This document shows, piece by piece, positions 3,453 through 32,465 of a stretch of 64,000 nucleotides of DNA. The DNA is from a virus. The stretch covers positions 1-64,000 of IMG/VR virus record IMGVR_UViG_3300045988_175722. The stretch is one strand, 5' to 3'. How positions within the stretch are numbered: the stretch's first letter is position 1; every line of letters begins with the position of its first letter. The translations under genes and the position numbers were made by a program. Below the pieces are notes generated by a model that saw only the letters and a program-made list of their open reading frames with translations, had not been told where the DNA came from and did no database searches.

Positions 3453-3484
3453 CAAAGGTAATATATTTATTTGGTTTTTGCAAA
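3453..3484 (-). promoter_or_regulatory. Bacteroidota-type promoter for 2979..3413
   Basis: Minus strand reads TTTG (3484-3481), 20 nt, TACCTTTG (3460-3453). Confidence 0.7.
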
Positions 3485-3815
3485 TATTTATAGTTAAAAG
3501 TTATATATTTATTTGTTTTTCGTATATTTTTAATTAAAATAGCGCATATTTGAGGTTCTTTTATCTAAGATTTTAGATGATATGACTTATTTCCGAATAA
3601 TTTTAAATCCCCTCTAAACTATTGGTATTTAAGGTATTACAAGAGATAGCCTTTTGTTTTTACCGCCCAAGAGGAGAAGATAAATAATTGATAATTAGAG
3701 AAATCCCAACTTCGGAGAAAACCCGAGAATCTTCTTTCAGCCGCACGACCCCAGCCGCCCTGAGATGACTGCCCCGTGCCCGCCTGCCTGGGTCCGTCTG
3801 GATATATGCCGCCGG

Positions 3816-3977
3816 CACCCACTAGATGAGGAACACCCCACCGCCTCCCAGGTGTACCCGCTGCCTGAACGAGTGCACCCACTAGATGAGGAACACCCCA
3901 CCGCCTCCCAGGGGTACCCGCTGCCTGAACGAGTGCACCCACTAGATGAGGAATACCCCACCGCCTCCCAGGTGTAC
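3816..3977. repeat. 60-bp GC-rich tandem repeat, 2.7 copies
   Basis: Unit CACCCACTAGATGAGGAACACCCCACCGCCTCCCAGGTGTACCCGCTGCCTGAACGAGTG at 3816-3875, 3876-3935 and 3936-3977 (partial), with 2-3 substitutions. A degenerate copy lies just upstream (about 3770-3815). Confidence 0.9.
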
Positions 3978-8524: not shown

Positions 8525-9232
8525 ATGATTAATACGAAATTATATGTAGATATTTTGAGCGACCAGGCAAAGGAAGACGGGCGACCACACGAGATGGCGC
8601 TGAGTGATTTCTGTGATTACCTTCTGGATTTATTCAGCGAGGAGGCATTCCGCGGCGGAACCCAGAATTTTATAAACTGGTATCAGGAACGTGTGATAGC
8701 CAAGCCAAATTTCGCTATCCTTGCCGCTACCTGGCTAAACGATGTGGCTGCATCAATGAAAAAAGGCGATTGGCTTGACGTGTTCGGAACCCTCTATGAG
8801 GATATGTATCTATCACCGGGTAAGGCTTCCCAGACGGGGCAATTTTTCACTCCTCATGACATTTCAGATCTGATTAGTGATATTATAGTCCCTGCGGAAA
8901 ATCAGGCTTCATGCCCTAAGATTTCAGGGAATCGTGTGAATGATTGTGCAGCCGGAAGCGGCCGTCTCCTTCTGTCGCACTTCGCAAAGGTTAGCCGTAA
9001 GAATCCGTACGGAGGCCGTCGATATAAGTATGTAGCCCAAGACTCTGATCCGCTGGTATGCAAGATGTGCGCGCTGAACATGATGGCGCACGGCATGAAC
9101 GGAACGGTGATTTGTCAAAACACCCTGGCATTAAATACCCCTTCCGTGATATACCACATCAACGGCATAAGGTACCCGTTTATCACACCTTATTATAGCG
9201 TACGTACAGTATCAGGGAATCCTAAGAAATAG
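8525..9232 (+). CDS. HsdM/N6_Mtase-like protein lacking a canonical catalytic motif IV
   Basis: 235-aa ORF. GQFFTPHDISDLISDII (motif X), VNDCAAGSGRLLL (motif I) and YVAQDSDPLVCKMCALNMMAHGMNGTVICQNTL follow the gamma-class N6-adenine methylase order. RYPF stands where NPPF/Y is expected, and the ORF ends 16 aa later. Confidence 0.6.
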   Translation: MINTKLYVDILSDQAKEDGRPHEMALSDFCDYLLDLFSEEAFRGGTQNFINWYQERVIAKPNFAILAATWLNDVAASMKKGDWLDVFGTLYEDMYLSPGKASQTGQFFTPHDISDLISDIIVPAENQASCPKISGNRVNDCAAGSGRLLLSHFAKVSRKNPYGGRRYKYVAQDSDPLVCKMCALNMMAHGMNGTVICQNTLALNTPSVIYHINGIRYPFITPYYSVRTVSGNPKK

Positions 9233-17621: not shown

Positions 17622-18664
17622 ATGAAAACTAAGACGTTTTTATTTGCCACCACCTTTGCGATGATGGCAGCCTGCATGGGTATCAATACCTCATGCAGCA
17701 AGTTGGCGATGGACGATGTAGTAGAGAATGGCAACGGGGATGAGGACGGCAGTCAGGCGACTCCTGCGGGTAAGGAGCATGTGAAGCTGAACTTTTCTAC
17801 CAGTTTGCCTACGGTAGAAACAAGCGGTACCCGTGGCTCCCATGGGGCGAATGGTACCCGTGGTGTTGATGGTGCGGCCGGAGTGGCTGGTACCCGTGCA
17901 TCCTTGCAGGCAGATGGCAAGGATATGACCGACATCTATATCTTTGACTACGACAAGACGAGCGGAAAGCTTCTGCAGGTGTTGCACCAGACGAACTCTT
18001 CCGCCGATTTCGCTCAGCCAGATATGACGCTGGCATACGGCGATCATACATTGAAGGTGATTGCTACCCGTAGCCTCTCCCCTACCCTGACGGATGCGGA
18101 GAAGACAACGTGGGCGGTGAATGATAATGTGCTCACGGCAGTGGGCGACGCTACCCCTGCCATCTGGACGAGCGAGAAGACATCTGATAGCTTCGGAGCG
18201 ATTAAGGATATTAGTGTGGTTCCGGCAAGGTTCAGATGGTGAACATTGCCCTGGAGCGTATCGTGGCAAAGTTGATACTGAACTGTACGGAGACTTATCC
18301 GGAGGATTGTGACGCGATGGTGGCCGAGTTCAGCGAGTACAAAGATTTCTCATTGAGCAGTTTTGACGTTATGAGCGCCGTGAAAAATCAGCGTACCTAT
18401 GACGTTACACCTTATGCAGGACTTAGCGGTAAGGGTGTATATTACTATGTACTGGTGCCAAAAACGGGTTACACCACGGATATTGCTGTAACAATGACCA
18501 GAAAGAACAGCGAGAAGCCTTATTCACAATTCACCATCACTGATGTGCCATTGGAGAGAAATAAGGTTACTACCGTGAAGGGTCAGTATTATAGCCACCA
18601 ATCCGGCATCACCTTTTCTCTGAAGTCAGAGTGGGATAAGAACGGGAATGATATTGCTATTTAG
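17622..18664 (+). pseudogene. fimbrillin-like surface lipoprotein with collagen-like G-X-Y run, split by a frameshift near 18215-18240
   Basis: ORF 17622..18242 has a signal peptide plus lipobox (INTSC) and eight G-X-Y triplets (GTRGSHGANGTRGVDGAAGVAGTR). ORF 18236..18664 continues in the +2 frame, which is open from 18215 (SGKVQMVNIALERIVAKL...), a motif typical of FimB/Mfa2-type proteins. One extra base around GTGGTTCCGG would explain the split. Confidence 0.5.
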
Positions 18665-18691
18665 TTTATAGTTTATAGAATAGAATAAAAA

Positions 18692-18729
18692 GGTGCAATC
18701 GTACTATAGCACTCTAGTACGATTGCACC
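18692..18729 (+). terminator. intrinsic terminator after the lipoprotein gene
   Basis: GGTGCAATCGTACTA (18692-18706) / 8-nt loop / TAGTACGATTGCACC (18715-18729). Perfect 15-bp stem followed by a T-rich tract. Confidence 0.7.
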
Positions 18730-18752
18730 TTTCACCTTTTCTTTATTCCTCT

Positions 18753-19399
18753 TTGGTACTATGGTGCATTTGCACCTTCGCACCTTCACATATTAACACT
18801 ATGGGGCATTCGCTCAATCGCACTTTGGTACGATTTAGTATTCGTACTATTCCACCTTGGTACTATGGAGCATTTGTACTACTATACATTGGTACGATTA
18901 AACATCCATACTATTTAAGTATTTGCACTATTGTACATTAGTGCGATGGTACATTGGTACGATGGGGCATTTGCACCAATGTACATAAGCCACGGGTAAA
19001 CGGTTTCGTAGATATGATTTTCTTTTCTTTTCTTCTGATACATAAGCATATATATATTCCCCCGATGCAGTAAATGAGAAAATAAATGAGAAGATAAATG
19101 AGAGAGCAAATGAATTTTTGCTCTATAGTTCTATTCGCCTTTCGTATTATAACACTTTCGTACAATACCGCTTTTACACTATAGTACTTTTGTACTATTC
19201 CTATTCTTAATAATTAAATAAGATTAAAATCTTAAAAATATATGCGGATTTTCTTGCAGGTTCCGATATTTTTTTGTACTTTTGCACCGTAGTACTTTGG
19301 TACGATGGAACATTTGAACTTTGGTTCATTTGCACATTGTACGTTGGAACGTATATTCATTTGCACCTTTGTACATTGGTACGTTAGTGCATTTGTGCT
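18753..19399 (+). repeat. centromere-like (parS/parC) repeat array upstream of parA
   Basis: Five full 24-nt units TTGGTACNATGGNNCATTTGCACC at 18753, 18857, 18954, 19297 and 19376, plus many half units (TTGGTAC, CATTTGCAC). About 650 bp with no credible ORF. Confidence 0.6.
19253..19284 (+). promoter_or_regulatory. probable parA promoter embedded in the repeat array
   Basis: CTTG 19253-19256, 20 nt, TACTTTTG 19277-19284. Repeat units 19297-19399 lie between it and the parA ATG. Confidence 0.55.
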
Positions 19400-19448
19400 T
19401 TAGTACTCGTAGTTTAAATTTAATTATTAATACTTTAAAATAAAGATT

Positions 19449-20342
19449 ATGGCAGAAGATAGATTGAAAGAAGTTTTGGCCTTTGTAAATCACAAGGGTG
19501 GCGTTGGTAAGACTACAACCGTACAGAATCTTGCTGTAGGTTTGCGTCGATTCGGCAAAGGCAAGTTTGGATTGAATGCGGCTGGCAAGCAGCGCTTACC
19601 ACGCATCCTGCTCATCGACCTCGATCCCCAGGGTTCGCTCTCCTTCCTTTTCGACCGCAGCGGGACCAAGCATCCCGAGCAGCTCACTATCTACGATTCG
19701 CTGGTAGAGCAGAAGCCTATCCCTATCTATCAGGTGAGAGAGGGCATCTACCTGGCTCCTGCATCCAAGAAATTGATTTCCATTGAGCCTTTTTTAAATC
19801 TGCGTGCAGTGCCAAGAAAGGCACTCTTCAAGCTGATGGCGAAGCCGCTTGCCCTGATGAGCGAGGAGGATGGCGACCTGGCGAGTGATGGCATTGATTA
19901 CAAGGATGGTGTAAACATAATGGAGGCATTCGATTTTGTGTTACTAGATTGCCCACCTGCGCTGTCCCTGCTCACCTATAATGCACTCACGGCTGCATCG
20001 GGTGCCGTGCTTCCGGTGCAACTGGAAGCATTGGCAACGAAGGGTATTTCCGAAATCATTAATGCCATCAAGGAGACGCGAGAGGATTTGAATGCTAATC
20101 TGAATATCCGCGGAATGTTAATGGTTATGAGTAATGATCAGACTAGAGCCACCAAGGAATATAAGGAATATTTGGGTGATACGTTCGAGAAGTATCTTTT
20201 TAAAGCCTACACCCGTCGTGATACCAAGATGGTAGAGGCGCAGTCGCTGAAAAAGTCTATTTTTGAGCGTACGCCTTATTGCAGAGTAGGTTTAGACTAC
20301 GAGCAGTTTACCAAGGAAGTGATGGACACCATGCCTGATTAA
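19449..20342 (+). CDS. parA: ParA/Soj-family partition ATPase
   Basis: 297 aa. Deviant Walker A NHKGGVGKTTT at the N-terminus, then LLIDLDPQGS and VLLDCPPALS motifs. Confidence 0.9.
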   Translation: MAEDRLKEVLAFVNHKGGVGKTTTVQNLAVGLRRFGKGKFGLNAAGKQRLPRILLIDLDPQGSLSFLFDRSGTKHPEQLTIYDSLVEQKPIPIYQVREGIYLAPASKKLISIEPFLNLRAVPRKALFKLMAKPLALMSEEDGDLASDGIDYKDGVNIMEAFDFVLLDCPPALSLLTYNALTAASGAVLPVQLEALATKGISEIINAIKETREDLNANLNIRGMLMVMSNDQTRATKEYKEYLGDTFEKYLFKAYTRRDTKMVEAQSLKKSIFERTPYCRVGLDYEQFTKEVMDTMPD

Positions 20343-20367
20343 TATTTAATATAATGATTTATAGATT

Positions 20368-20757
20368 ATGGTAGAGAAAGTAAAAAAGCCGTATAACGCA
20401 TTTACGCTTGAAGGTTCTGACCTCGTAGAGGAGAACGAGAAGGTTTTGAATGATGATGCAGCACCTGTTTCTTCGTCATCTGCTGCATCATCTACATCGC
20501 AGCAGGAGCAATCCTCACAGCAGGAGCCCCCAGAGCAGCCAGCGCAGCGCATTGCACCTGTAGTAAATGTGCAGCCTACAAAGACTACAAAGACCGTGAA
20601 GCTGATTCTCCCGATAGAGTATTATTTCTCGTTAGCGAGAATCAAAGAGTGCACAAATAAGTCTTTGCAGGACTTGGCAGCCCAGGCCGTGATGGACTTC
20701 GTAGATAATTTCGGAAAGAAGCAGGTAAACGAAAAGTCAGATTTGGTACCGAAATAG
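20368..20757 (+). CDS. small partition adaptor, ParG/RHH-like centromere-binding protein (by context)
   Basis: 129 aa immediately after parA. Disordered Ser/Gln/Pro-rich N-half. The C-terminal KTVKLILPIEYYFSLARIKECTNKSLQDLAAQAVMDFVDNF fits a strand-helix-helix (ribbon-helix-helix) pattern. Confidence 0.5.
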   Translation: MVEKVKKPYNAFTLEGSDLVEENEKVLNDDAAPVSSSSAASSTSQQEQSSQQEPPEQPAQRIAPVVNVQPTKTTKTVKLILPIEYYFSLARIKECTNKSLQDLAAQAVMDFVDNFGKKQVNEKSDLVPK

Positions 20758-20786
20758 TACCGAAGGGTATAGTTTTTGGAACCAAC

Positions 20787-20874
20787 TCACTACATTTATG
20801 GCCAGGTTTCACTACATTTATGGCCGGGTTTCACTACATTTATGGCTAAGTTTCACTACAAATGTGGCTAAGTT
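20787..20874 (+). repeat. iteron array, 4 contiguous 22-bp direct repeats
   Basis: TCACTACATTTATGGCCAGGTT at 20787, 20809, 20831 and 20853 (1-5 substitutions each). Confidence 0.9.
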
Positions 20875-21044
20875 TGAAACTTAACTATCTATGTTTCAGA
20901 AAGTTAGTGTTTTCGGAATATCGAATATAGAAGATGGAATATATTATATATAAGAGTTTATCTTTATATATATCAAAGATTCTATATTTAATATTCTATA
21001 TTCCGAGATAGCTAATTTGGTGGCTATCAATAAGTTGGATATCA
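20875..21044. other. AT-rich spacer of the origin (candidate unwinding region)
   Basis: 170 bp between the two opposed iteron arrays. Long ATAT/TATA runs (for example ATATATTATATATAAGAG and TTTATATATATC). Confidence 0.55.
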
Positions 21045-21154
21045 AAGTTATCCATAAATGTAGCGAAACTTAGCCATAAATGTAGTGAAACCTGGCCACA
21101 AATGTAGTGAAACCTGGCCACAAATGTAGTGAAACCTGGCCACAAATGTAGTGA
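21045..21154 (-). repeat. iteron array, 5 contiguous 22-bp repeats in inverted orientation
   Basis: AACCTGGCCACAAATGTAGTGA at 21089, 21111 and 21133; variants at 21045 and 21067. These are the reverse complement of the left array. The array ends 22 nt before the rep ATG. Confidence 0.9.
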
Positions 21155-21176
21155 CATTATATAATAAGGTACGATT

Positions 21177-22634
21177 ATGGATAAAAACAAGCAAATAGAC
21201 AACCGATATATTAATACGCCCTTTGCCTATACGAAGACTCAGAACGGATTGACGTTACTCCAGCAGAACGTGATGGTAAGGGTGTCAGCGCATCTTCAGA
21301 AGTATATCGAGAAGTTTTATAAAGATCCTCAGTTGCTGGCTTCAAAGGATGATCCGAAGCCGCTGATGCACTCTTACGAGAAGGAGCACGTGCCTCCTGT
21401 TCGTATCAGGTTGTCAGAGCTGGGTATTGCATCGAACGTTTACAGCCGTGTCCGAGCGGCCTTAGAAGGCATTCTTGACGTGAAAGTTGAGCAACCTGGA
21501 TATGATGAAGAAGGAAGACCGGTAATGAATATACTTCCTTTATTCAATAGAATAAGTATTCCTGTTACCGACCATGGTACAGTAGTAAAGAAGCGCTTAT
21601 TAAAAGATGACGAGGACTTAACAGAAGTGTTTGTTGATAGAGTTCGTGGTTATGTAGAAATCTCTCTGAATCCTGGGGCAATCGACGACATGTTTAACAT
21701 GAACCTTGGATATGTTACCCACCCGGTAGATATAGCTCGTATAGGCAAGGTAGATAAGATGCCTTTGATGTATTATTTCATTCGTCACAAGATGTTGAAC
21801 TTTAAGAAGGCGAGCACGCAGGTATCTGTAGAGGAGATACGTGACTATCTGGGTATGATAGTAAGAGATTTCGATGGAAACATTATTAAGGTTCAATATC
21901 CTCATTATAGCCGATTCAAGGCTCGTGTGATAGACACGGCACTGAATGACATTAAAAGGGTGTACGAGGCAGGGCAGATAGATTTCTACTTTGAAATGAA
22001 GGAAATTCGTGCATCTGGCAAGAAGATAGGTGAACCTGATTTTTTGGAGTTCAAAAAGGTAGGAACCGTGAAGAATGATAATGCCAAGTATAGAACCAAC
22101 TCCGAGCGCAAGCTAATTGACACCCTGCTTACATCTTATCCTACTCTCGATAAGAGCAGGGTAGTGGCTATCCTTTCAGGCATTACTGAAGACAAATGGA
22201 ATGAGTTTAAGAATTACGCCTATAAAGATGTGCCGAGGATGGCAGAGCAGCCACATCGATGGAACGGAACAAACGAGGAATTTATCTATCACTTACTCGA
22301 GCATTGGGAGAAGGGGCGGTCTGTTCAACAGACAACAAATAAGCCGCCGCAGCAGCTTGATTTATTTGCCAACGTTCTCCCTGTTTCCTCGAAGATAGAA
22401 ACGAAGGTAGGCGAGGGCGCTGATAAATGGAAGGCGTTCTGCAAGCTCATTATAGGCGACGCTGAAAAATCACTGATTTCCCGTCTTTCCTTTGTCGGCA
22501 TGAAGAACGACCGCTTCTGCGTGGAGTGCAGCGATGAGGATTTTGATATGATCCGAAAATTAGGTATCGAGGATAAAGCGAAAGAGTTCTTTGGATGTGT
22601 CGGCTCGTTTGCTCCTGTGTTCTATCGAGGATAG
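21177..22634 (+). CDS. rep: plasmid-type replication initiator (iteron-binding Rep)
   Basis: 485-aa ORF directly downstream of the iterons. The N-terminus NTPFAYTKTQNGLTLLQQNVMVRVSAHL resembles the Rep_3/RepB-type initiator signature by eye. Confidence 0.7.
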   Translation: MDKNKQIDNRYINTPFAYTKTQNGLTLLQQNVMVRVSAHLQKYIEKFYKDPQLLASKDDPKPLMHSYEKEHVPPVRIRLSELGIASNVYSRVRAALEGILDVKVEQPGYDEEGRPVMNILPLFNRISIPVTDHGTVVKKRLLKDDEDLTEVFVDRVRGYVEISLNPGAIDDMFNMNLGYVTHPVDIARIGKVDKMPLMYYFIRHKMLNFKKASTQVSVEEIRDYLGMIVRDFDGNIIKVQYPHYSRFKARVIDTALNDIKRVYEAGQIDFYFEMKEIRASGKKIGEPDFLEFKKVGTVKNDNAKYRTNSERKLIDTLLTSYPTLDKSRVVAILSGITEDKWNEFKNYAYKDVPRMAEQPHRWNGTNEEFIYHLLEHWEKGRSVQQTTNKPPQQLDLFANVLPVSSKIETKVGEGADKWKAFCKLIIGDAEKSLISRLSFVGMKNDRFCVECSDEDFDMIRKLGIEDKAKEFFGCVGSFAPVFYRG

Positions 22635-22693
22635 TGATTAGTGAGCAGTGATTAATGAGTAGTGATTAGTGATTAGTGATTATTGATTAGTGG
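22633..22693 (+). repeat. array of short tandem repeats (GTGATTAGT-like), left arm of a large palindrome
   Basis: AGTGATTAGTGAGCAGTGATTAATGAGTAGTGATTAGTGATTAGTGATTATTGATTAGTGGG. Confidence 0.85.
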
Positions 22694-22754
22694 GTATAGA
22701 GAGGGGCGTAATTTCGGATTGCGCTCCTTTTTTTTGTGTTATAAACGCCAGCTT

Positions 22755-22806
22755 AGTTAATCACTAATCACTACCATCCCCTAATCACTACCCATTAATC
22801 ACTAAC
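22755..22806 (+). repeat. inverted array (TAATCACTA-like), right arm
   Basis: TTAGTTAATCACTAATCACTACCATCCCCTAATCACTACCCATTAATCACTAACC. Reverse-complement sense of 22633-22693. A T8 tract lies between the arms. Confidence 0.85.
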
Positions 22807-22874: not shown

Positions 22875-23504
22875 ATGAAAAGGAAAGAGATTATTCATCT
22901 ACTCTTGATAGCAGTAGCGATGATGATGCTTGCGGCATGCGCCTCTTCTCGACGAGTGGTTACTGATAACCATCAGGAGACAAAGGATAGCGTAAAGACC
23001 GTACAGACGGATAGCGTGCATAAGCAGATAACGGCGAACGATAGCCTTGCCACCAAGGTAATCGAAGATAGGCATACCGCAGCCACCTCCACGGAATCGG
23101 ATGAATATGAGGAAACCATTCAGGAGAATATCACCGAATCCACCGATTCTTCCGGTAACAAGCAGAAGACTACCCATCGTACCACTCACCGCAAAGGCAG
23201 CCGCAGCAGCCAGTCTTCCTACGATGAGCGATTGCAGCATCAGCAGCAGGAAATCAGTCAGATGCAGAAAACCATCGATAGCCTTGCCCTCAACAACCGC
23301 AGTGATGTAGGCACCCACTGGGCAGCTACCGATAGTTTATCAGATACGCAGGAAAAGAATACCAAGGATGTAAGAAAGGCTACCTGGCTACAGGCAGCTA
23401 AAAAAAACGCCTTTGCGTTGTTCCTGATATTAGTAATAGCATTGTTATTGACCACTTTTAAAAAGCATAGCGACCATGGGCAAGAAGAAAAAAAACGATC
23501 CTGA
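22875..23504 (+). CDS. lipoprotein/membrane protein, S/T/Q-rich
   Basis: 209 aa. Signal peptide plus lipobox MLAAC-A, and a C-terminal TM helix AFALFLILVIALLLTTF. Confidence 0.7.
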   Translation: MKRKEIIHLLLIAVAMMMLAACASSRRVVTDNHQETKDSVKTVQTDSVHKQITANDSLATKVIEDRHTAATSTESDEYEETIQENITESTDSSGNKQKTTHRTTHRKGSRSSQSSYDERLQHQQQEISQMQKTIDSLALNNRSDVGTHWAATDSLSDTQEKNTKDVRKATWLQAAKKNAFALFLILVIALLLTTFKKHSDHGQEEKKRS

Positions 23505-24571: not shown

Positions 24572-25282
24572 TCATTCGTCATGGCGCAGTTCTTTTGCCA
24601 CCATGCCGTATCCCGCTTGCGGCAAATTACCTCCATCCTGCTGAGAGTTCAATCGACGGGTCAGTTCACCGATGAGCTTCTGCTGGTCGCCTATCTGCTT
24701 TTGCTGCTCGGCTATGATGTCGAGCATGCGGTTAAGCGTAGTCATACTGATGCCATGCCCCATATCTGGAACATGTGCGCCATTTTCTTCTTTAGCTAGA
24801 GCACGAGCACCCACTTCTTCTTCTCTCTCTTTCTTCTTTCCTCTTCCATTCCAATCACTCTCGCCCCCATTTCCAGCGATTCCATCGCTGGTCCACCCCG
24901 GCACCACCGATTTAATCCTATCCACATCGAGCGGGTCACGGAGCGCACGTGTGCCCAGTTTCCGCTTGGCATCATTCCCCAGATAACCGCCATCCGGCTC
25001 AAACTGGTCTCCCGCACCTGGGCACACATACTCCATCTTGCGGCAATCGCCATCCCCCAACGGGCTGGCATCAACATCCACAATAAAAGCTGATAGCGGG
25101 ACGTGAAACGCATTGCAGAAACGCAGCAGCGCAATGGTAGGCAGTGGCGACTTCATCCGTTCCCAACTATCAAGGCAAGTATTACTCGTAGTACCCATGG
25201 CGCGCATCATCTGCTTATTAGTGATGTCCTTATTGGCTTCCATCCATCTGTTCAGGAAGCTGTAGTTATAACAGTACTTCAT
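24572..25282 (-). CDS. HTH transcriptional regulator (candidate repressor) with coiled-coil C-terminus
   Basis: 236 aa. The N-terminal ITNKQMMRAMGTTSNTCLDSWERMKSPLPTIALLRFCNAFHVPLSAFIV fits an XRE-like HTH. C-terminal heptad-like QQKQIGDQQKLIGELTRRL. Divergent from 25454..25948. HP32 copy 2 sits in frame in the linker. Confidence 0.7.
   Translation of the reverse strand: MKYCYNYSFLNRWMEANKDITNKQMMRAMGTTSNTCLDSWERMKSPLPTIALLRFCNAFHVPLSAFIVDVDASPLGDGDCRKMEYVCPGAGDQFEPDGGYLGNDAKRKLGTRALRDPLDVDRIKSVVPGWTSDGIAGNGGESDWNGRGKKKEREEEVGARALAKEENGAHVPDMGHGISMTTLNRMLDIIAEQQKQIGDQQKLIGELTRRLNSQQDGGNLPQAGYGMVAKELRHDE
24862..24893 (+). repeat. HP32 hairpin element copy 2 (inside a minus-strand CDS)
   Basis: CGCCCCCATTT CCAGCGAT TCC ATCGCTGG TC. 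Read on the minus strand it encodes WTSDGIAGN. Confidence 0.85.
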
Positions 25283-25395
25283 ATTTCAACTATATTTTAA
25301 AGATGAATAACTCTAATATGTTCACTGAAAAATCAATTAATATAACTAACCTATGTTAAATTCCCCTAATTTTCGGCAAAAAAATATAGGTAACA

Positions 25396-25427
25396 TTTGG
25401 TAGTTGCAATTTTATTATTTAAATTTG
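25396..25427 (+). promoter_or_regulatory. Bacteroidota-type promoter for 25454..25948
   Basis: TTTG 25396-25399 (extended TTTGGTAGTT), 20 nt, TAAATTTG 25420-25427. Confidence 0.65.
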
Positions 25428-25453
25428 CACCAAAATTAAGAAATAAAATTGAA

Positions 25454-25948
25454 ATGACAAAGGAAATCTTAGAAAAAATATGTAGAAAAAATACTCCATT
25501 AGAGGTAAATGACATCTCGGTGGAGGAAAAGAAGAACTTAGCTGAGTTTTTATCGGTTAAAGGATTCTCTACATCTACATTCTATCTCAGATTTTTTCAG
25601 AAAGGTTTCGATGCCTGGGAAATTCAGGGTATCAACAACTGCAAAAGTCAGTTCTTAGCTATACCGGATGTAGGTAAGCTATTAGCGGAATATGTAGAAA
25701 CCGATGCCCTGGGTAACGAGATTGGCAAAAAGGGCTATCTCGTAGAGCTCGCGCAGAGCAAAGAACCGGGCGTGTTCTATACCTGCTTGAAGAAAGTAAA
25801 CAACGGTCTCTGCATCAAGTTCTTTGCCTACATGGAAGAGAGAGGCATGAGCCGTACCACCGTTATTAAGCGTTTCACCGCTGACGATTGGAAGCCATGG
25901 GAGCAGGAGGGAATAAAAGCACTTTTAAAGGTAAAAGCCTGTGCTTAG
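25454..25948 (+). CDS. hypothetical protein divergent from the HTH regulator
   Basis: The track ORF is trimmed to MTKEILEK (ATG 25454) because the promoter lies inside the longer ORF. 164 aa. Confidence 0.65.
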   Translation: MTKEILEKICRKNTPLEVNDISVEEKKNLAEFLSVKGFSTSTFYLRFFQKGFDAWEIQGINNCKSQFLAIPDVGKLLAEYVETDALGNEIGKKGYLVELAQSKEPGVFYTCLKKVNNGLCIKFFAYMEERGMSRTTVIKRFTADDWKPWEQEGIKALLKVKACA

Positions 25949-26030: not shown

Positions 26031-26720
26031 ATGATAGACATTACTGTCGATTTAGAAACCTGTTCGCTTTCGCCCACCGCAGCGGTGATGAGCATTGCTG
26101 CGGTGGCGTGGAAGCGCTACGGTAAAGAGTCGCCTTTCTTCGATGAAGGCGACGGAGTATTGAGAAATTCCACATATTCTGCACACGTGGACTTGAGAAG
26201 CATGTTCCTTAACGGGTTCACCTTCGACCAGAGCACGGCAGATTGGTGGGCGAAGCAGAGCGACGAGGCAAAAGCTGCCTTGCTCGACAATGACAGCGAC
26301 GAGTCGCCCTGCCAGCCTATAGACGTGATAGTAAATGACCTCTTCGAGTGGATAGAAGACATCAAGAAGAAACTCGGTGATGAAGACCTCTGCCTTTGGG
26401 CGCAGGGTACTGATTTCGACGTGGCTATTCTGAAATATATCTGCTACAAGATGGGCATTGAGTTCAGAGTTAAACATACCCAGTTGAGAGACCACCGCAC
26501 GTTCTATCTCGAACTTGCGAGAATCTTATGGGATGCAGCCGAGCCTAACGAGGAGAAATTCACCCTCGACAAGGCTTACTCCCTGACCACGGACTACAAG
26601 GACATCGCTGATGATGAAGGTGCGGCTCATAACCCGATCTTCGACTGCAAGCGAAGTATCTATAGCACTTGGCAGATGATGAAGAAGATAAGAGAAGAAG
26701 TTTATGCCTCGTCTGTTTGA
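26031..26720 (+). CDS. DEDDh 3'-5' exonuclease (DnaQ-like fold)
   Basis: 229 aa. The three exonuclease motifs appear in the right order: ITVDLET (Exo I D-x-E), WAQGTDFDVAIL (Exo II) and HNPIFD (Exo III H-x4-D). Confidence 0.7.
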   Translation: MIDITVDLETCSLSPTAAVMSIAAVAWKRYGKESPFFDEGDGVLRNSTYSAHVDLRSMFLNGFTFDQSTADWWAKQSDEAKAALLDNDSDESPCQPIDVIVNDLFEWIEDIKKKLGDEDLCLWAQGTDFDVAILKYICYKMGIEFRVKHTQLRDHRTFYLELARILWDAAEPNEEKFTLDKAYSLTTDYKDIADDEGAAHNPIFDCKRSIYSTWQMMKKIREEVYASSV

Positions 26721-27120
26721 TTTGCCCTATATCCCTACCCGGACGAGCATCCATCGTAGGCATAGAAATCTATCCCGATATAAACTGCTGCACCGTTTCG
26801 CCTATACCGAAACGATGAGCGGGCTAAGGGATGATATACCGACCCTGCTATTCTATGCGCCCTTCGCCCTGTTGAAAGATACCTGCGAGTATCTTTGCAG
26901 GATGATGGCAGGCAGCGTGGAAGATATAATCATCACGCCCTCGCATAGCTGCCGCCGCAAGAACGGCAAGATATACTGGAGGCAGGAGGTGCAGATCATC
27001 GGTCTCGATACCAACTTCCTTACGATGGAAAGTCTCTCGCAGATGATAGTACATCGTATGGAAATTATCTGCAACTGCAAGATACGGCGCTATCGCCTGG
27101 AAACATTCTTGAATTTATAA
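26704..27120 (+). CDS. hypothetical protein (uncertain)
   Basis: 138-aa ORF that overlaps the exonuclease end by 17 nt. No motif. Confidence 0.45.
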   Translation: MPRLFDLPYIPTRTSIHRRHRNLSRYKLLHRFAYTETMSGLRDDIPTLLFYAPFALLKDTCEYLCRMMAGSVEDIIITPSHSCRRKNGKIYWRQEVQIIGLDTNFLTMESLSQMIVHRMEIICNCKIRRYRLETFLNL

Positions 27121-27717
27121 AAATATAAAGATATGAAGAAATAAACAAAGATATACTGCATGACATCATGCGCCATCAGAGATACACTACATTTCTGATA
27201 CGTTTTATTTTGTTAGACAACCAAGCCATCGGTTAAAATGGCAGGAAGACCTGACGGGCGATAGGTGGACGCTGGAAAGCTTCACTAATAAGTTAATACC
27301 CCCCCCACCGCAGTCTTGGAACGATAAGTGAAAAGTCTGATTAAAAAGCCTGAGGAATACCTATCGATGCGGTAAGCGGGGCATCCTCGAAATTTGGCGG
27401 TGTCGCCCCGAAGGTCTTCTTTCTTTGACAATATTGATATAAAGAGAATAGGGGAGGCATTCTGGAAACACTCTTATGCAAGGGTAGTGGGAGCAGTAAT
27501 GTCCCATGACTACGCTGCACACTGCATCTTTGCCGGCACTATGGAGAGACGTGATTAGCGTTATGCCGCGTCTTTGCGTTAGAATATTCAGCGGGCGAGT
27601 ACCACAGATTCACAAATGCTCCGACCGCTCGCTCTAGAATATAACCCGGCAAGGTGTAAACACTTGAAGTTTGGCCTACCCTCTGCGCCCCCGTCCCCAG
27701 CGATTCCATCGCTGGTC
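27121..27717 (+). ncRNA. candidate large non-coding RNA or cis element (ORF-free region ending in an HP32 hairpin)
   Basis: No ORF of 60 aa or more on either strand in the track between 27120 and 27780. Not AT-rich, unlike other spacers. Contains a C8 run (27299-27306). Ends with HP32 copy 4, as protein-coding units do. Confidence 0.3.
27685..27717 (+). repeat. HP32 hairpin element copy 4
   Basis: GCGCCCCCGTCC CCAGCGAT TCC ATCGCTGG TC. 63 nt upstream of ATG 27780. Confidence 0.85.
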
Positions 27718-27779
27718 AATGGTCAAGAGTGGTGCCTTCCCTGTCTCTTTTAACTCTATAAATACTCTTGATGTAAGAT

Positions 27780-30700
27780 ATGTTATTCCATCCTATATTG
27801 AATCAGCTAAGCAACATCGATATGGCTTTTCTCGTAAAACCAGCCGATGAGCAGCGCATCGAAGGGCAGACGGCTTGTTTCTGTCCGCTCTGCCAGAAGG
27901 AGGAGGCAGACGATGGCGAGCAGAGCAAAGCAGAGCAGACCCCACATCTCATTGTCTATAATAATGAGCGTGGCGGTATGTATAATGGTGTAGGGGTGGA
28001 AGGCAATACCAAAGCAGAGCATGGAGCCTTACGTTGGATGTGTACCAAGACTGGAAAGTATGGCTACGGAGCCTTAGAACTCTATGCCGCCATGCGTAAG
28101 CTGCCAATGCACGGAGCCAGCCTGTTGCGCCTTTGTCACGACCTCGTGGTAAAGGTGTATGGCGACAACGAAAAGACAAGAGCCAAATGGCCAATGCTCT
28201 TTGCCAGGATGGACTATCGCACCATCGCGAACCACACGATAGCGACATTTTCTTTTATCCCAAAGACAGACTTCAATCCCCAGGAGCTCGCAGCCCTGGG
28301 GTGCGAAGTCACAATGATAAAAGGAATTCCGCAATATGGTTTTGGCAAGGATTTCAACACTACGATGCTGAATGATGATTTCCGCATCTATGCCGTAGAT
28401 CAAGTAACCCTGCCCAATGTAGTGAGAAACGGGCAGCAGGTGAGCGAAGTGATTTACGGCACACCCTGGAACCCGTTATTCGTCTGCTTCGCTACAGATG
28501 TGATAGCGCCTCAAGGAAGTTGCGGATGTTTCTTCCGTCCAGCCATGCAGCAAGACCCAATCGTCTTCTCCACCTGCGAGGATCACAGTGTGAGGAAGGT
28601 GAGCAAGTGGCTCATGGGCGACAAGGTTTTTACTTATGCCATGGATCATCGGAGTAACAACTCTACTGCCGTTCACTCGGCAATAGAAAAGCTACAACCG
28701 GACGAGCCTTATACCGATAAGAAAGAAATATGGGTGGAGAACGAAACTAAGGATGGCGAACCGAAAGGCACCTTTCATGCAGAACAGAAACCCATAGAAG
28801 TTGGTGACATCAAGGCTCAGAACATCGTGTTCTGCAGAACATCCGAAGACGCATTAAGCGTTTATTACGCCATGCGTTCCCTGCGTCAGGATAAGGCGCA
28901 GGATAATCATTTTCAGAAATACTGCTGGTATCACGTAGCCTTCTCGCTTGGCAGAAGAAACTTCTGGTATATCGAGCGTGGGCAGTGGAGGCAGGAAAAG
29001 CTAGACTTCAATGCCGTGCAGTATCAGAAGATGAAGCGATTTGCCGAGAGGGTTATCATGCTTTACCCTAACGACATCGCCAGCCAAAGGGATTGCGGAG
29101 CCATCGCAACTAAGTATTGCGATATTTGCTATGCTACATTGCCCGATGGCTTTAGAAGTAGATATAATCAAAGGTGGAACTGGTTGTATGGTTGCTCACC
29201 ACGAAGTGTGAGAGATTATCTGATATGCTACCACATGGATGATGCCGACAACTTCAAGTTCGACCACGATATAAGATTGCCGTTATATTCGAGATTACGG
29301 GGAGCCAACAACACAGATCCATTCGAGATTGAATATCCCCGAGACCCGAGAAGTGGCAAACCTAAACCGCCTACCTGCAAGGTATCGCCTACCAAGGTGT
29401 GGCTCTTTATGACCTGCCGTGGTTATTACAGAATGATAGACCCTGAGAGTACTGACCTCGTAGGTCAGTATATCCATTTGGATAGATGTTTTGTGGAATA
29501 CATCGACCAGAAGAGTGTCATCCAGGCAACGAAAGTTCAACTTCTGCAGTTTATCGAACAGAGTTGGCGGTACAACGACAAGGAGCGTAAGATGATGTCG
29601 GATTGCGCTAACCTGATAGACAAGAATTTCAGCGAGAAATCGGCTGGAGGCTTACAGAGCATGGTGATAGATTTCACCGAAAGCTTCGATGCACATACGG
29701 AATATTTCTTCTTCCGAAATGTAGCGTTAAAGATTACGCCCGAAGCCATTACACCAGTCAGCTATGAGAAGCTGAATTTCTTCATCCCATCCCTGGCCAA
29801 GAAGCCGTATGATTTCACGATGAGGGTATTCAATCCTCCTTTTGTTATCAGCGAGAGTCAGGAGTATAAGGATAAGGTAGCAGCCATCGCCCAAGAGGAA
29901 GCGCAGGTTAACGAGGACGGTTCACCGGTTTTCTCAAGAGAGGAAATTGACCAGAAGAAGAAAGACCTCAAAGATTGGGCACAGACTTTCCGTTGGCAGG
30001 TGAATTGGCAAGGCAAGCAGGAAAAAGAGCTTTGGCCTGTGCTGAGAGTGATACGCGGTTGCTGCAATGTGCAGTGGAGACTGGAGCAGGATAGTATTCG
30101 CAACAAGAAGCCGATGCCCCCTGAAGCCATCGCCGACATCAACTCTCATTTCGCCAACATGATTTCCTGCTTGGGAAGAATCTGTTACCGCTCATGGGCT
30201 GACATGCAGAGTATCTGCCCCTATCTCCTCGAAGATGCGGTGGAGGACGAGAAGCAGGCTAGTGGCGGTTCGGGCAAATCATTGATGATAAACCTCGTGG
30301 TAGGTTCAGCGGTAAATGTACTGCGTGTCGATATGAAAGAGTTTGTAACGATTGCCGACGCAAAGTTTGCTCTTTCTGATTTACTGATATATCCGGGTAA
30401 GTTTAGAGTCATACACTGGGAAGACAAGCCTTCGGGTTTCCCGATGAAGTACTTCTATATTAAGGTAACGGCAGGTGCCAAGGTTGAGCGAAAGTTCGGC
30501 GACCCGATTGTATTCAAACTGGAGGAATCGCCATTGAACGTGATAACTAGTAACTATCAGCTAAGTGATAGTGAAGATAGTACGCTCAGACGTTTCCCCT
30601 TGGTGTCATTATCCGACAGATTTTGCTGTGAAAACCCAATGAAACATAAGTTGGCGCGCTCTCCTAAAGAGGTAATGAAGAATCTTGCCTCCGACCCTGA

Positions 30701-31460
30701 AAAGCTGAATGAGCGAGATCGCAATCAGGCGATATATATCTGTGCCCTTGCCGTGCAGTTCATCATGCGCTATCATACCTTTGCGGTTGCTCCTCAGAAG
30801 AATGTTCAGCGAAGATTGATGGTAAGAGAGCTGACCGAAAACACGGTGAACTACTTTGAGTGGTTCTTCAGCCGTAATGAGGTATATTCAGCACCTATCT
30901 GTGCAGATGAAATGTTTAATGAGTTCATGCGAGATTGGGCTGATGCCAGCGAGGGTAAGAGTAAGGAATACAGCCGAGCCACCTTCAAGAAGAAAATCAG
31001 GAAGTATTGCGAGAATATGAATATCGACTGCAATCCGGAGAATCTTCTGATTGGCGAGGATAACAAGCGCCATGGCTGTTTCAAGCTCAGAGCTTGGATA
31101 ACGGAGGAGTACTTCGTAGGACGGGAATGGGAGAATGATGAAAGTGTAGAGCCGAAACATATCCGCAGGGTAAAAACCAGCAAGCACGTCTATTTCTTCT
31201 TCCGTAAGGGTAAGGATCACATTCCAGAAAGCTACGATGAGTTAAAACGCATCGCCAAGGAATACGTAGAAGGTCCCGACCCATTACCATATCGTGATGA
31301 TGATGGCAACATCGTCTCCCTCACCCCAGAAGAGGAAGAACGCTGGAAGGCATTCACCTCCCGCAAGCAGGGCAGAAGGCAAGCCATGCAAAACGGCAGC
31401 GATAGCAACAACGCAGCAGAAATGGTAGGCGAAATAGATAAGAGCAATTTGCCATTCTAG
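27780..31460 (+). CDS. primase-helicase (CHC2-like zinc finger N-terminus, P-loop NTPase C-terminal half)
   Basis: 1226 aa. CFCPLCQKEE...TPHLIVYN...WMCTKTGKYGYGALELY resembles a DnaG-type zinc finger. Walker A is ASGGSGKSLMINLV near residue 820, as in P4/D5-type SF3 helicases. Ends in ...DKSNLPF. Confidence 0.7.
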   Translation: MLFHPILNQLSNIDMAFLVKPADEQRIEGQTACFCPLCQKEEADDGEQSKAEQTPHLIVYNNERGGMYNGVGVEGNTKAEHGALRWMCTKTGKYGYGALELYAAMRKLPMHGASLLRLCHDLVVKVYGDNEKTRAKWPMLFARMDYRTIANHTIATFSFIPKTDFNPQELAALGCEVTMIKGIPQYGFGKDFNTTMLNDDFRIYAVDQVTLPNVVRNGQQVSEVIYGTPWNPLFVCFATDVIAPQGSCGCFFRPAMQQDPIVFSTCEDHSVRKVSKWLMGDKVFTYAMDHRSNNSTAVHSAIEKLQPDEPYTDKKEIWVENETKDGEPKGTFHAEQKPIEVGDIKAQNIVFCRTSEDALSVYYAMRSLRQDKAQDNHFQKYCWYHVAFSLGRRNFWYIERGQWRQEKLDFNAVQYQKMKRFAERVIMLYPNDIASQRDCGAIATKYCDICYATLPDGFRSRYNQRWNWLYGCSPRSVRDYLICYHMDDADNFKFDHDIRLPLYSRLRGANNTDPFEIEYPRDPRSGKPKPPTCKVSPTKVWLFMTCRGYYRMIDPESTDLVGQYIHLDRCFVEYIDQKSVIQATKVQLLQFIEQSWRYNDKERKMMSDCANLIDKNFSEKSAGGLQSMVIDFTESFDAHTEYFFFRNVALKITPEAITPVSYEKLNFFIPSLAKKPYDFTMRVFNPPFVISESQEYKDKVAAIAQEEAQVNEDGSPVFSREEIDQKKKDLKDWAQTFRWQVNWQGKQEKELWPVLRVIRGCCNVQWRLEQDSIRNKKPMPPEAIADINSHFANMISCLGRICYRSWADMQSICPYLLEDAVEDEKQASGGSGKSLMINLVVGSAVNVLRVDMKEFVTIADAKFALSDLLIYPGKFRVIHWEDKPSGFPMKYFYIKVTAGAKVERKFGDPIVFKLEESPLNVITSNYQLSDSEDSTLRRFPLVSLSDRFCCENPMKHKLARSPKEVMKNLASDPEKLNERDRNQAIYICALAVQFIMRYHTFAVAPQKNVQRRLMVRELTENTVNYFEWFFSRNEVYSAPICADEMFNEFMRDWADASEGKSKEYSRATFKKKIRKYCENMNIDCNPENLLIGEDNKRHGCFKLRAWITEEYFVGREWENDESVEPKHIRRVKTSKHVYFFFRKGKDHIPESYDELKRIAKEYVEGPDPLPYRDDDGNIVSLTPEEEERWKAFTSRKQGRRQAMQNGSDSNNAAEMVGEIDKSNLPF

Positions 31461-31490
31461 CCCCCGTTCCCAGCGATTCCATCGCTGGTC
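31459..31490 (+). repeat. HP32 hairpin element copy 5
   Basis: AGCCCCCGTTC CCAGCGAT TCC ATCGCTGG TC. It overlaps the TAG stop of the primase-helicase and is identical to copy 8. Confidence 0.9.
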
Positions 31491-31505
31491 TAAAATAAAA
31501 AAGTT

Positions 31506-31763
31506 ATGGCAAAGAAAGAAGAAACAAAGAAGAAGAAAGGCGTAAGAGTAGCCAATCGTCAAGCATGGGTAGATACCTTCGTATATCTCTGCCCTTATCA
31601 CCGAGGCGGAACAGGCCCCGGTGAATATTGCGAGGAACCCGACGGAACCCGCACCAACTGCACAGGCAGATGCACCTACACGGGCAGCGGAGCCTGTTCG
31701 CATGTAACGCAGTTCTTCAAAACATATCTCAAGTTCGTAAACAAGGAAATTGAATTTTTATAA
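31506..31763 (+). CDS. small Cys-rich protein
   Basis: 85 aa. Basic N-terminus and 6 Cys (CPYH...C...C..RC...C). Confidence 0.6.
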   Translation: MAKKEETKKKKGVRVANRQAWVDTFVYLCPYHRGGTGPGEYCEEPDGTRTNCTGRCTYTGSGACSHVTQFFKTYLKFVNKEIEFL

Positions 31764-31774
31764 AATTACAAAAT

Positions 31775-32383
31775 ATGGCAAGTTATACAGGAAACGTTAA
31801 TCTCATGGCACTGAATGGTGCCAAAGTTCTAGTTGGTCTCGATGAGAAGAATGCGCAGCGTCCTTACATCTGTATTCCACTCGATGTTAACGAAATTAGG
31901 ATGGAAGCATCCAAAAATGATCCCAACAAGCAGATGGCCAAGTTGAGAATCAGCATTTGGCCATTCAACGAGCAGTACAAGGCAAAGGTACGCCAGAGCC
32001 TTGCCGAGCGTGGCGACAGCAATGTGAGTGTGCCTACCCACGAAATGCAGCTCTCGTTCTCCGCCGAGTACGTCAAGGCGGTAGCCAAGGCGTTCCCCAA
32101 GCTTGTAGAGCAGGTGAAGGAAGCCAACAAGGAAAGAGACCCAGAAATCGTAAATCAGGATTTCAATGATGAGAATACTCATCTCTTCAAGGCAATCCGC
32201 ACCCGCATGAATAAACGCATTGCGCAGCTCTATCAACCACAAGTCACCCCTCAGCAGACGTATCCACAGCAAGCCTACGGCACGGCTGGCAACGCCACCG
32301 CATACGTGCCACCAGCAGATGGAGCAAATGATTATACCTCAATGCCAGGTTACAATGACCCGAACAGCGACCTGCCATTCTAA
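31775..32383 (+). CDS. putative ssDNA-binding/replication accessory protein with SSB-like C-terminal tip
   Basis: 202 aa. Q/P/Y-rich disordered tail ending in ...DPNSDLPF, compared with the bacterial SSB tip D-D-D-I/L-P-F. Located between the primase-helicase and the clamp. Confidence 0.4.
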   Translation: MASYTGNVNLMALNGAKVLVGLDEKNAQRPYICIPLDVNEIRMEASKNDPNKQMAKLRISIWPFNEQYKAKVRQSLAERGDSNVSVPTHEMQLSFSAEYVKAVAKAFPKLVEQVKEANKERDPEIVNQDFNDENTHLFKAIRTRMNKRIAQLYQPQVTPQQTYPQQAYGTAGNATAYVPPADGANDYTSMPGYNDPNSDLPF

Positions 32384-32405
32384 TTAATAATTAATCATTG
32401 GCTAT

Positions 32406-32438
32406 GCGCCCCAGTTCCCAGCGATTCTATCGCCGGTC
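32406..32438 (+). repeat. HP32 hairpin element copy 6
   Basis: GCGCCCCAGTTC CCAGCGAT TCT ATCGCCGG TC. One A.C mismatch in the stem. Confidence 0.8.
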
Positions 32439-32465
32439 CATCATCATCAACAAAAAAGCAGAAAA

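Follow-up and report, generated by a model that had tools for sequence, protein, structure and literature searches.

Most known phage-plasmids come from Proteobacteria, Firmicutes and Actinobacteria. The first 64,000 nucleotides of the IMG/VR virus record IMGVR_UViG_3300045988_175722 (here called the window) hold a putative plasmid partition and replication cassette inside a tailed-phage genome, which raises the question of how this phage persists in its host. An earlier note on this DNA had proposed a low-copy plasmid prophage, and our analysis supports that proposal. We consider it quite probable that the 64-kb window belongs to a temperate tailed phage of ~104 kb whose host is Prevotella/Segatella and which is kept as a low-copy circular plasmid prophage, or phage-plasmid. 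Persistence as a low-copy plasmid is probable because a full partition and replication cassette is present and no integrase was detected. By sequence, the predicted virion and lysis genes lie on one molecule with plasmid-type rep and par genes.

A putative plasmid maintenance cassette

The block at 18689-22740 (the cassette) is compact, is encoded on a single strand and has terminator-like hairpins at both ends. The repeat array, ParA, the adaptor resembling a ribbon-helix-helix (RHH) protein, the iterons and the initiator Rep that the earlier note had described are all present, with ends that are the same or shifted by a few bases. The features are as follows.

18689-18732, no strand: near-perfect 21-nt inverted repeat (AAAGGTGCAATCGTACTATAG / CTCTAGTACGATTGCACCTTT), arms 95% complementary
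18737-18992, plus strand: array block 1, centromere/operator-like, ~31 units of 8 nt
19069-19124, plus strand: array interruption, a 12-nt repeat (TAAATGAGAAAA, 3.8 copies) and a small hairpin
19125-19200, plus strand: array block 2, ~8 units of 8 nt, CTTTCGTA-type
19265-19414, plus strand: array block 3, ~16 units of 8 nt (TTTGTACN / TTTGCACN)
19449-20342, plus strand: parA, 297 amino acids (aa), with a deviant Walker-A motif, KGGVGKTT, from residue 16 (K16)
20368-20757, plus strand: putative centromere-binding adaptor, 129 aa, beginning 26 nt past parA
20724-20745, plus strand: vestigial type B iteron, single copy with 1 mismatch, inside the 3' end of the adaptor gene
20758-20779, plus strand: vestigial type C iteron, single copy with 2 mismatches
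20787-20874, plus strand: left iteron array, 4 direct 22-bp copies, TCACTACATTTATGGCCAGGTT-type
20880-21044, no strand: AT-rich spacer with internal short repeats and an imperfect palindrome
21045-21154, minus strand: right iteron array, one degenerate and 4 good copies, inverted relative to the left array
21177-22634, plus strand: rep, 485 aa, putative iteron-binding initiator of the Rep_3/pi type
22698-22740, plus strand: intrinsic-terminator-like hairpin (22698-22732) followed by a T-run, the right edge of the cassette

ParA matches the Pfam domains AAA_31 (3e-33) and CbiA (9.5e-13), PHROG 164 'ParA-like partition protein' (4e-41) and, as its top PDB match, Soj (1wcv, 2e-27). With ParA of the circular Segatella copri plasmid NZ_CP137558.1 it shares 36% identity (E = 1e-62), and its top matches among phage proteins are ~30% identical. 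Since ParA lacks an N-terminal helix-turn-helix (HTH) domain, it is type Ib-like, and its length and predicted fold fit the type Ib proteins (about 200-310 aa, no N-terminal HTH).

The adaptor begins with a basic tail, continues with a low-complexity S/Q/E/P linker and ends in a conserved C-terminal domain of 45 aa (KTVKLILPIEYYFSLARIKECTNKSLQDLAAQAVMDFVDNF). A profile of the C-terminal domain matches the RHH protein ORF56 of pRN1 (2k9i/3ft7; E = 1.2e-4), and neither the full protein nor this domain alone has a Pfam match. An AlphaFold2 (AF2) model built from a 20-sequence alignment is of low confidence (pLDDT 56) and places helices at residues 89-96 and 100-117; at that low confidence, their placement is compatible with an RHH fold. 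An equivalent ORF follows ParA in 44/44 ParA-holding loci, and the type of its N-terminal peptide tracks the ParA type across loci. A small, putatively RHH protein directly downstream of parA is the arrangement of type Ib partition loci.

Rep matches the second winged-helix domain (WH2) of Rep_3 initiators (Pfam Rep3_C, PF21205; 23.9 bits, cut-off 21.1) and the R6K pi protein (2nra_C, E = 2e-5). By tblastn it matches 'RepB family plasmid replication initiator' genes of Segatella plasmids (28-30% identity, E down to 8e-48), with full-length alignments (residues 2-485) to the initiators of NZ_CP137558.1, NZ_CP137560.1 and NZ_CP085934.1. By these comparisons, the par and rep genes have relatives on genuine circular plasmids of Segatella. 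The predicted WH2 domain fits an iteron-type initiator, and the 22-bp iterons and AT-rich region next to rep fit such a replicon as well.

The spacer between the two iteron arrays has a GC content of 19-24% over 20900-21050 and is a candidate DNA-unwinding element. The right array probably overlaps the rep promoter, because it ends only 22 nt before the rep start codon. Three DnaA-box-like sites (one mismatch) occur in 20863-21184, all overlapping iterons; the window-wide count is 23 against 15.3 ± 4.0 expected, which is not clearly above chance. DnaA boxes were rejected as an origin feature because they could not be distinguished from chance or from the iterons. No matching Rfam family was found.

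An 8-nt-periodic array upstream of parA

The region upstream of parA (18690-19414, ~720 bp) is an 8-nt-periodic array of roughly 55-65 degenerate units in three blocks. The unit consensus, TTTG-TAC/CAC-N, combines a GTAC/GCAC tetramer core with a 4-nt T-rich spacer. The inverted repeat at 18689-18732 is the first GTAC/GCAC-bearing unit of the array, and its hairpin looks like a bidirectional terminator, being terminator-like on both strands, at the left edge of the cassette. Block 3 stops 35 nt short of the parA start codon and is likely the par operator and promoter region.

The period-8 autocorrelation of the array is 0.459, compared with 0.264 ± 0.026 for all 720-nt windows in the 64 kb, and this signal is unique to the array, with no other region near it. 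For the motif T[TAG]G[TGC][AGT]C there are 35 matches in the array, where its density in the window would predict 3.3. Consecutive matches are spaced by 8 nt in 21/34 cases and by other multiples of 8 in 8 more. GTAC occurs at 30.5 per kb in the array versus 3.0 per kb. A period-8 signal is kept in all related loci compared (0.36-0.47). An array of this kind beside a par operon fits a type Ib system, in which it would have a putative centromere/operator role.

A second kind of repeat lies at the other end of the cassette. TAGTGAT / TAATCAC heptads form two converging arrays of ~8.7 and ~6.4 copies within 22632-22805 (22632-22692 and 22758-22805) that flank the right terminator, with two further copies at 1103-1118 beside an HTH gene. 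Their core matches WATCACW, the heptad to which the RHH protein omega of pSM19035 binds. WATCACW is only marginally enriched in the window (48 vs 37 ± 5.5), and the heptad arrays after rep are absent from 46/47 relatives and thus specific to the genome variant of the window. One relative (locus L046) has five heptad copies at 8769-8797, between parA and the adaptor gene. Because the heptad arrays after rep are missing from 46/47 relatives, whereas the 8-nt array is universal, omega-type heptads were rejected as a conserved centromere. Other 7-nt tandem repeats (CTATAAA, AGTTGAT, GAATATA) lie between genes at 54983-55014, 56102-56126, 56157-56189 and 20916-20943, and a GTTGAAT repeat lies near position 3700 of locus L200. 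Such intergenic 7-nt repeats may be a general trait of the regulatory or terminator regions of this family.

The cassette is found throughout a phage clade

Does the cassette belong to the phage, or was it joined to it during assembly? Eleven window proteins were compared by tblastn with 47 IMG/VR loci found through Rep. The gene order up285, lipoprotein, p142, then array, parA, rhh, iterons and rep was common to 47/47 loci, as were the right-hand neighbours p209, p100, p185, p236 and p183. The proteins flanking the cassette were 45-88% identical across these loci. An independent metagenome scan with p185 as query yielded 60 human-gut contigs, 54 of which carry a full-length rep upstream of p185; the remaining 6/60 have no full-length upstream ORF, mostly from truncation. 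A ParA profile found at least 334 IMG/VR stretches, sister clade members included. Taken together, these comparisons indicate that the cassette belongs to the core of a large clade of phages.

The earlier note had held that its proposal would fail if the cassette came from a separate, co-assembled plasmid. The only pointer to a chimeric assembly, in which a phage would have been joined to a co-resident plasmid, is that iteron repeats break assemblies, several contigs beginning 100-150 nt upstream of rep. Identical genes flank the cassette on both sides in the 47 IMG/VR and 54 metagenome contigs, which come from many samples and assemblers, and GC content is continuous across the block. Because the cassette has the same neighbours in independent contigs, a co-assembled plasmid is excluded, and we regard the chimera as already refuted.

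Specificity determinants covary with their DNA sites

If the cassette functions in maintenance, its DNA-binding proteins and their sites should change together. Rep falls into at least five N-terminal types, and each of the three main types has its own 22-bp iteron in the IMG/VR loci.

Rep type A: iteron TCACTACAAATGTGGCTAAGTT, in two inverted arrays
Rep type B: iteron GGTAAACGAAAAGTCAGATTTA, 4-7 direct copies in one direct array
Rep type C: iteron TACCAAAGGGTATAGTTTTCGG, 6.5-14.8 copies in one direct array

This pairing was replicated in the 60 metagenome loci. All 28 type-B Reps were accompanied by 2-9 B iterons, 12/13 type-C Reps by 3-7 C iterons and 5/5 type-A Reps of 485 aa by A iterons. 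Foreign-type iterons, in 1-3 copies, also occur in many of these genomes. The C-terminal ~90 aa of types A and C are 80-86% identical, and their N-terminal parts are unrelated at this level. Since the two types share a C-terminus and differ N-terminally with their own iterons, the DNA-reading half and its sites move together.

The partition half of the cassette behaves similarly. The adaptor C-terminal domain occurs as three types (RHH-1, RHH-2 and RHH-3) with differing array motifs: 12 of the 13 RHH-1 loci, the type of the window, have a GTAC core at 8-nt spacing, and RHH-2 and RHH-3 loci have A-rich or TATTTA array units in place of GTAC. ParA, RHH and Rep types assort in differing combinations across loci. 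These mixed combinations, together with the vestigial foreign iterons in the window, point to cassette exchange; the vestigial B and C iterons upstream of the window's own array look like a scar of it. The covariation of specificity determinants with their DNA sites is, in our view, the strongest evidence that the predicted cassette functions.

Whether this extends to the whole clade is, in our estimate, about an even call: the abundant ~90-107 kb human-gut Prevotella/Segatella phages would all be obligate phage-plasmids that have diversified into incompatibility groups by swapping matched protein-DNA cassettes, allowing co-residence. One assembly, ERZ1034669, holds two family members that differ in Rep-iteron type: L252 (type C, coverage 295x) and L260 (type B, coverage 430x). 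Their co-occurrence is what distinct incompatibility types would allow and is a community-level observation.

Physical form of the genome

In ENA ERZ28576153 scaffold_132 (104,194 bp), the window corresponds to the reverse strand of the final 64 kb. Its closest relative, IMG/VR 3300045988_165550 (104,310 bp), has a ParA 95% identical to that of the window, and four overlapping loci of this relative were used for the 48 kb of genome outside the window. The long ORFs of the relative include an S49 protease-scaffold fusion (head protease), a GH108 endolysin, a reverse transcriptase beside a lectin-fold gene, a LysR regulator and a beta-ketoacyl synthase. Cargo-like genes seen among the relatives are a LysR-family regulator, a beta-ketoacyl-ACP synthase, a PAPS reductase and GNAT acetyltransferases, at these positions.

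L062, 17626-18531
L242, 5113-6315
L056-L058
L309-L310

The earlier note had suggested a check for circularity, and its outcome is a circular map. Contig break points vary, falling at the 282-aa gene/HTH gene, at rep/thyX and, in several contigs, inside iterons. Two complete contigs, 3300045988_158849 (L183/L123) and 3300045988_165610 (L025/L161), have ends that adjoin in other contigs. The map is circular on the strength of these varied break points and adjoining ends. Metagenome contigs of 102-107 kb make up 15/60, and in over 100 terminase clusters the longest contig hardly ever exceeds 111 kb. A search of the two complete IMG/VR contigs for an exact direct terminal repeat found none. Their ends carry ~85 and 83 nt of extra sequence, one end with a hairpin (GGAGGGAGTTTCACCCTCCC). 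This extra sequence looks like an inserted repeat or mobile element whose interior was not assembled, possibly IS200/IS605-like.

Virion, lysis and phage replication genes

The remainder of the window carries the following phage features.

1119-1616 and 2979-3455, minus strand: two Cro/CI-type HTH regulator genes, with Bacteroidota-type promoters near the region 1119-3455
26031-33662, plus strand: phage replication genes apart from rep (exonuclease, primase/TOPRIM-like, clamp)
26031-26720, plus strand: DnaQ-like exonuclease (Rv2179c-like, 7e-24)
27780-31460, plus strand: primase/TOPRIM-like protein, 1226 aa, with a weak tblastn match to phage 'DNA primase/TOPRIM' (E = 2e-10)
32466-33662, plus strand: DnaN sliding clamp with all three DnaN domains
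50853-52856, minus strand: probable large terminase, 667 aa, with Walker A AARRVGKT and Walker B MVGDE
56275-56901, plus strand: holin (Phage_holin_4_1, 1e-7)
58202-64000, plus strand: tape measure, running past the window end (2091 aa in the full contig)

The tape measure (PhageMin_Tail 6.8e-10; phrog_28 8.6e-23; four PHROGs in all) and the holin bear out what had been claimed for them. The terminase had been called unambiguous, which was an overstatement: the protein has no match in Pfam, PHROG or PDB sequence searches. Its identification stands on the Walker motifs, on tblastn matches to annotated large subunits of Microcystis phages (30% identity over 76% of the length, E = 7e-33; best terminase match 32% identical) and on one source that names the protein 'Large subunit terminase'. 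Among the replication genes, the clamp and exonuclease hold by their domains. The supposed primase-helicase has only the weak primase/TOPRIM match, and this 1226-aa protein has no Pfam or PDB match. Three DNA methyltransferases are also present in the window. The region 1119-3455 is a candidate lysogeny-control region, judging from its predicted regulators.

Just beyond position 1 of the window, relatives carry an RVT_1 reverse transcriptase gene adjoining an Lcl_C lectin-fold gene, in these loci.

L139, 14482-15930, minus strand
L146, 3186-4472 and 5359-6102, minus strand

This pairing suggests a diversity-generating retroelement (DGR). Many contig ends cluster within a few kb of the DGR-like region, perhaps because hypervariable or template repeats break assemblies there. 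ThyX and guanylate kinase genes lie downstream of the tape measure gene in locus L055.

Could the element be a plasmid of phage origin that has lost the ability to form infectious virions? Virions are deduced from genes, and the terminase and most structural genes diverge too far for annotation, which would leave room for such a defective phage-plasmid. We consider it very improbable, because the genes for the virion, lysis and packaging are intact and their conservation is very strong over hundreds of contigs, with 99% identity for one structural protein (in about 50 contigs) and 87-97% for the terminase. The DGR-type reverse transcriptase next to a lectin-fold target gene further suggests ongoing selection on host adsorption.

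Host and integration signals

Which host carries this phage, and does it integrate there? The earlier note had placed the host in Bacteroidota from its TAnnTTTG promoters, and this holds up. The pattern TTTG-N17-21-TAnnTTTG occurs 7 times in the window, mostly between genes, against 1.55 ± 1.48 expected. Of four short contigs from metagenome-assembled genomes (MAGs) that matched the element, two were binned as Prevotella. Together with the Segatella plasmid homologues of ParA and Rep, the promoter pattern and these bins narrow the host to Prevotella/Segatella. The host is thus a member of Bacteroidota, most likely Prevotella/Segatella, and the phage comes from the human gut.

As the earlier note had reported, the window lacks recognizable integration signals. 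No integrase, recombinase or resolvase Pfam domain was found in window ORFs of at least 180 aa, and no integrase or resolvase domain in the long ORFs of the relative's complementary 48 kb; overall, these scans covered ORFs of about 150-180 aa or longer. Neither a tRNA nor an att-like tRNA fragment was found in the 64-kb window. Chromosomal flanks with an integrase would have spoken against a plasmid prophage, and no chromosome-embedded copy was present in 185,579 species-representative genomes, where the four MAG contigs were the only matches.

An integrating temperate phage would need a recombinase that escaped detection, or would use XerCD or transposition, with par and rep serving only a transient episomal phase. 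Many ORFs have no Pfam match, three contigs surpass the genome length (165 kb and two of 130-132 kb), and p183 has a sub-threshold match to Phage_int_SAM_5 (21.6 bits, cut-off 22.3). However, p183 is only 183 aa long and has no catalytic domain, and no catalytic integrase or resolvase domain was seen in the long ORFs of the window or of the relative's 48 kb. The lack of a tRNA or att-like fragment in the window and of a chromosomal copy also argues against integration. Moreover, 15/60 contigs end at 102-107 kb, and breaks are scattered over the circular map and not gathered at one att site. We judge integration to be quite improbable.

Weighing a plasmid prophage against a lytic lifestyle

Several considerations weigh against a plasmid prophage. 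The extrachromosomal state is itself inferred. Scans of ORFs with Pfam would miss a novel recombinase or use of the host XerCD, and the absence of an integrase over 48 kb is judged from a relative and not from the window's own contig. The profile searches called for by the earlier note detected ParA, the WH2 domain of Rep and the tape measure, but neither the terminase nor the N-terminal winged-helix domain (WH1) of Rep_3, which Pfam did not find in Rep at E <= 0.01. The RHH assignment depends on the E = 1.2e-4 profile match and the pLDDT 56 model. A circular map fits a circularly permuted, terminally redundant virion genome equally well. Finally, there are over-length contigs: NODE_1 of ERZ1034701 (165,062 bp; L284, coverage 277), which begins inside a type B iteron array 125 nt upstream of rep, and two more, NODE_75 of ERZ15610513 (132,333 bp; L309) and k141_1830 of ERZ27246973 (130,120 bp; L310). 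These three could be host junctions, concatemers or strain joins.

Because the phage encodes its own clamp, exonuclease and primase-like protein, rep and the iterons could serve lytic replication. The phage would then be virulent or pseudolysogenic, with Rep and the iterons as its main lytic origin and with ParA and the RHH protein positioning genomes or supporting transient carriage. Contig names give very high coverage values (as much as 430x), no lysogen is known, and the 185,579 species representatives include no isolate genome with a copy. On the other hand, promoter-overlapping iterons, a full par locus and a 720-bp array appear to be devices for copy control and segregation, of little lytic use. 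CI/Cro-type regulators are encoded on the opposite strand. Incompatibility between co-resident replicons would select for just such a diversification into paired Rep-iteron and RHH-array types. The LysR regulator and ketoacyl synthase cargo and the assembly-breaking insertion suggest long residence in cells. Given these features, we think a lytic lifestyle unlikely and favor a plasmid prophage.

A model for maintenance

How might the plasmid prophage be maintained? Rep monomers would bind the iterons and melt the AT-rich spacer, leading to theta replication with host or phage replisome parts, and the conserved C-terminus of Rep is probably its docking site for a partner that is likewise conserved. 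The iteron array overlapping the rep promoter would allow rep to be autorepressed, and pairing of iteron arrays ('handcuffing') would keep the copy number low. For partition, RHH dimers would cover the 8-bp-spaced GTAC/GCAC boxes, with a single dimer on each, and would also keep the par promoter repressed. The basic N-terminal tails of the adaptor would stimulate nucleoid-bound ParA-ATP, so that sister copies are separated before division.

Repressors of the CI/Cro type may silence the 26-40 kb replication module and the virion and lysis modules until induction. The 26-40 kb replication genes would then serve lytic growth, much as P1 has separate plasmid and lytic origins (PMC10983915). Over evolutionary time, the DNA-binding half of Rep with its iterons, and the RHH domain with its array, would have been swapped, giving several incompatibility types within one lineage.

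Genes and repeats near the cassette

Predicted lipoprotein genes lie on either side of the cassette (17622-18242 and 22875-23504). Judged by eye from the translations, their signal peptides end in a Cys lipobox (MKTKTFLFATTFAMMAAC... and MKRKEIIHLLLIAVAMMMLAAC...), and the two genes may be morons or exclusion genes that are active while the phage is carried. Further right, a minus-strand 236-aa gene (24572-25282) faces p183 (25397-25948) across an intergenic region with back-to-back Bacteroidota-type promoter matches at 25396-25427 (plus strand) and 25431-25461 (minus strand). Because it lies exactly between the maintenance cassette and the phage replication module, 24572-25461 is a candidate for a switch. 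A GC-rich 60-nt tandem repeat (2.7 copies, 97% matches) at 3815-3977 lies between the HTH genes and the early genes.

Implications

Plasmid persistence is a lifestyle barely documented in Bacteroidota. If the clade as a whole persists in this way, these phages would be the first classical par-plus-iteron phage-plasmid group in this phylum and a natural system for the evolution of incompatibility. The paired Rep-iteron and RHH-array variants, carried on backbones that are otherwise 60-99% identical, allow a direct test of module swapping driven by incompatibility. Lifestyle predictors based on integrases would also be misclassifying a common, high-coverage part of Prevotella-rich human gut metagenomes. 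The phages would further be vertically inherited carriers of cargo (a LysR regulator, a ketoacyl synthase and methyltransferases were seen). Segatella is hard to manipulate genetically, and rep with its iterons and par with its centromere would be ready-made parts for genetic tools.

Comparison with known systems

How does this element compare with phage-plasmids described so far? Like those of the P1, N15 and SSU5 groups, it joins virion and lysis genes, a ParA-type par system and an iteron Rep in a tailed-phage genome of ~100 kb, with no integrase detected and with separate phage replication genes; like P1, it has a circular or permuted map. The earlier note had proposed a comparison of gene sharing with these groups, and sequence searches showed no similarity to the type phages, so that the likeness is one of organization without sequence relationship. 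The cassette block has no megablast match in phage (50,697 records) or plasmid collections, and Rep has no tblastn match in the 50,697 phage records. Unlike P1 (type Ia ParA/ParB) and N15 (SopAB), the present par system is type Ib-like, with a small ParA and an RHH adaptor, and the host phylum, Bacteroidota, also differs from that of the P1, N15 and SSU5 kind.

For partition, the nearest parallel is parFGH of TP228. Its parH comprises 20 ACTC boxes with 4-bp spacers over ~160 bp upstream of parFG, and each box binds one dimer of the RHH protein ParG, whose flexible tails contact ParF (PMC3130281). Both systems place a small ParA-family ATPase before a small RHH protein with an N-terminal tail, downstream of a centromere/operator (putative in the present element) of degenerate tetramer boxes with an 8-bp period and mixed orientation. 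In contrast to TP228, the boxes here are GTAC/GCAC and not ACTC, and the array is ~720 bp long with roughly 55-65 units. The adaptor is twice as long as ParG, with a low-complexity acidic/Pro/Gln linker, and has no detectable sequence similarity to it, ORF56 of pRN1 being its sole PDB match.

For replication, the element shares with the Rep_3/pi (R6K) and Segatella RepB-family initiators a WH2 domain and iterons by an AT-rich region directly upstream of rep. Unlike those plasmid initiators, Rep here is 485 aa long, with a ~200-aa C-terminal extension whose last 90 aa are kept across types. Its gene sits in a phage genome and, in the window variant, is preceded by two inverted iteron arrays around the spacer.

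Within Bacteroidota, a 2021 census counted Bacteroides among the clades in which phage-plasmids are probably under-detected, and its sole Bacteroides-side entry was crAssphage, as a singleton (Pfeifer et al. 2021, PMC7969092). Carjivirus communis, the prototypic crAssphage, has been proposed as a phage-plasmid (PMC10983915). In the literature searched, crAssphage was the only case of a gut Bacteroidota phage-plasmid, and no description of a Prevotella/Segatella phage-plasmid of the present kind was found. Carjivirus communis, which lacks an integrase, and the present element, in which none was detected, are both gut Bacteroidota phages, with extrachromosomal persistence proposed for each. However, Carjivirus communis belongs to the unrelated, podovirus-like Crassvirales, whereas the element described here has a tape measure, as expected of a long tail, and a classical ParA-RHH-iteron-Rep cassette. 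These comparisons suggest that the element probably represents a new, large group of gut Bacteroidota phage-plasmids. Its parts are themselves classical, and its novelty lies in the host phylum, in how large the clade is and in the clear swapping of cassettes.

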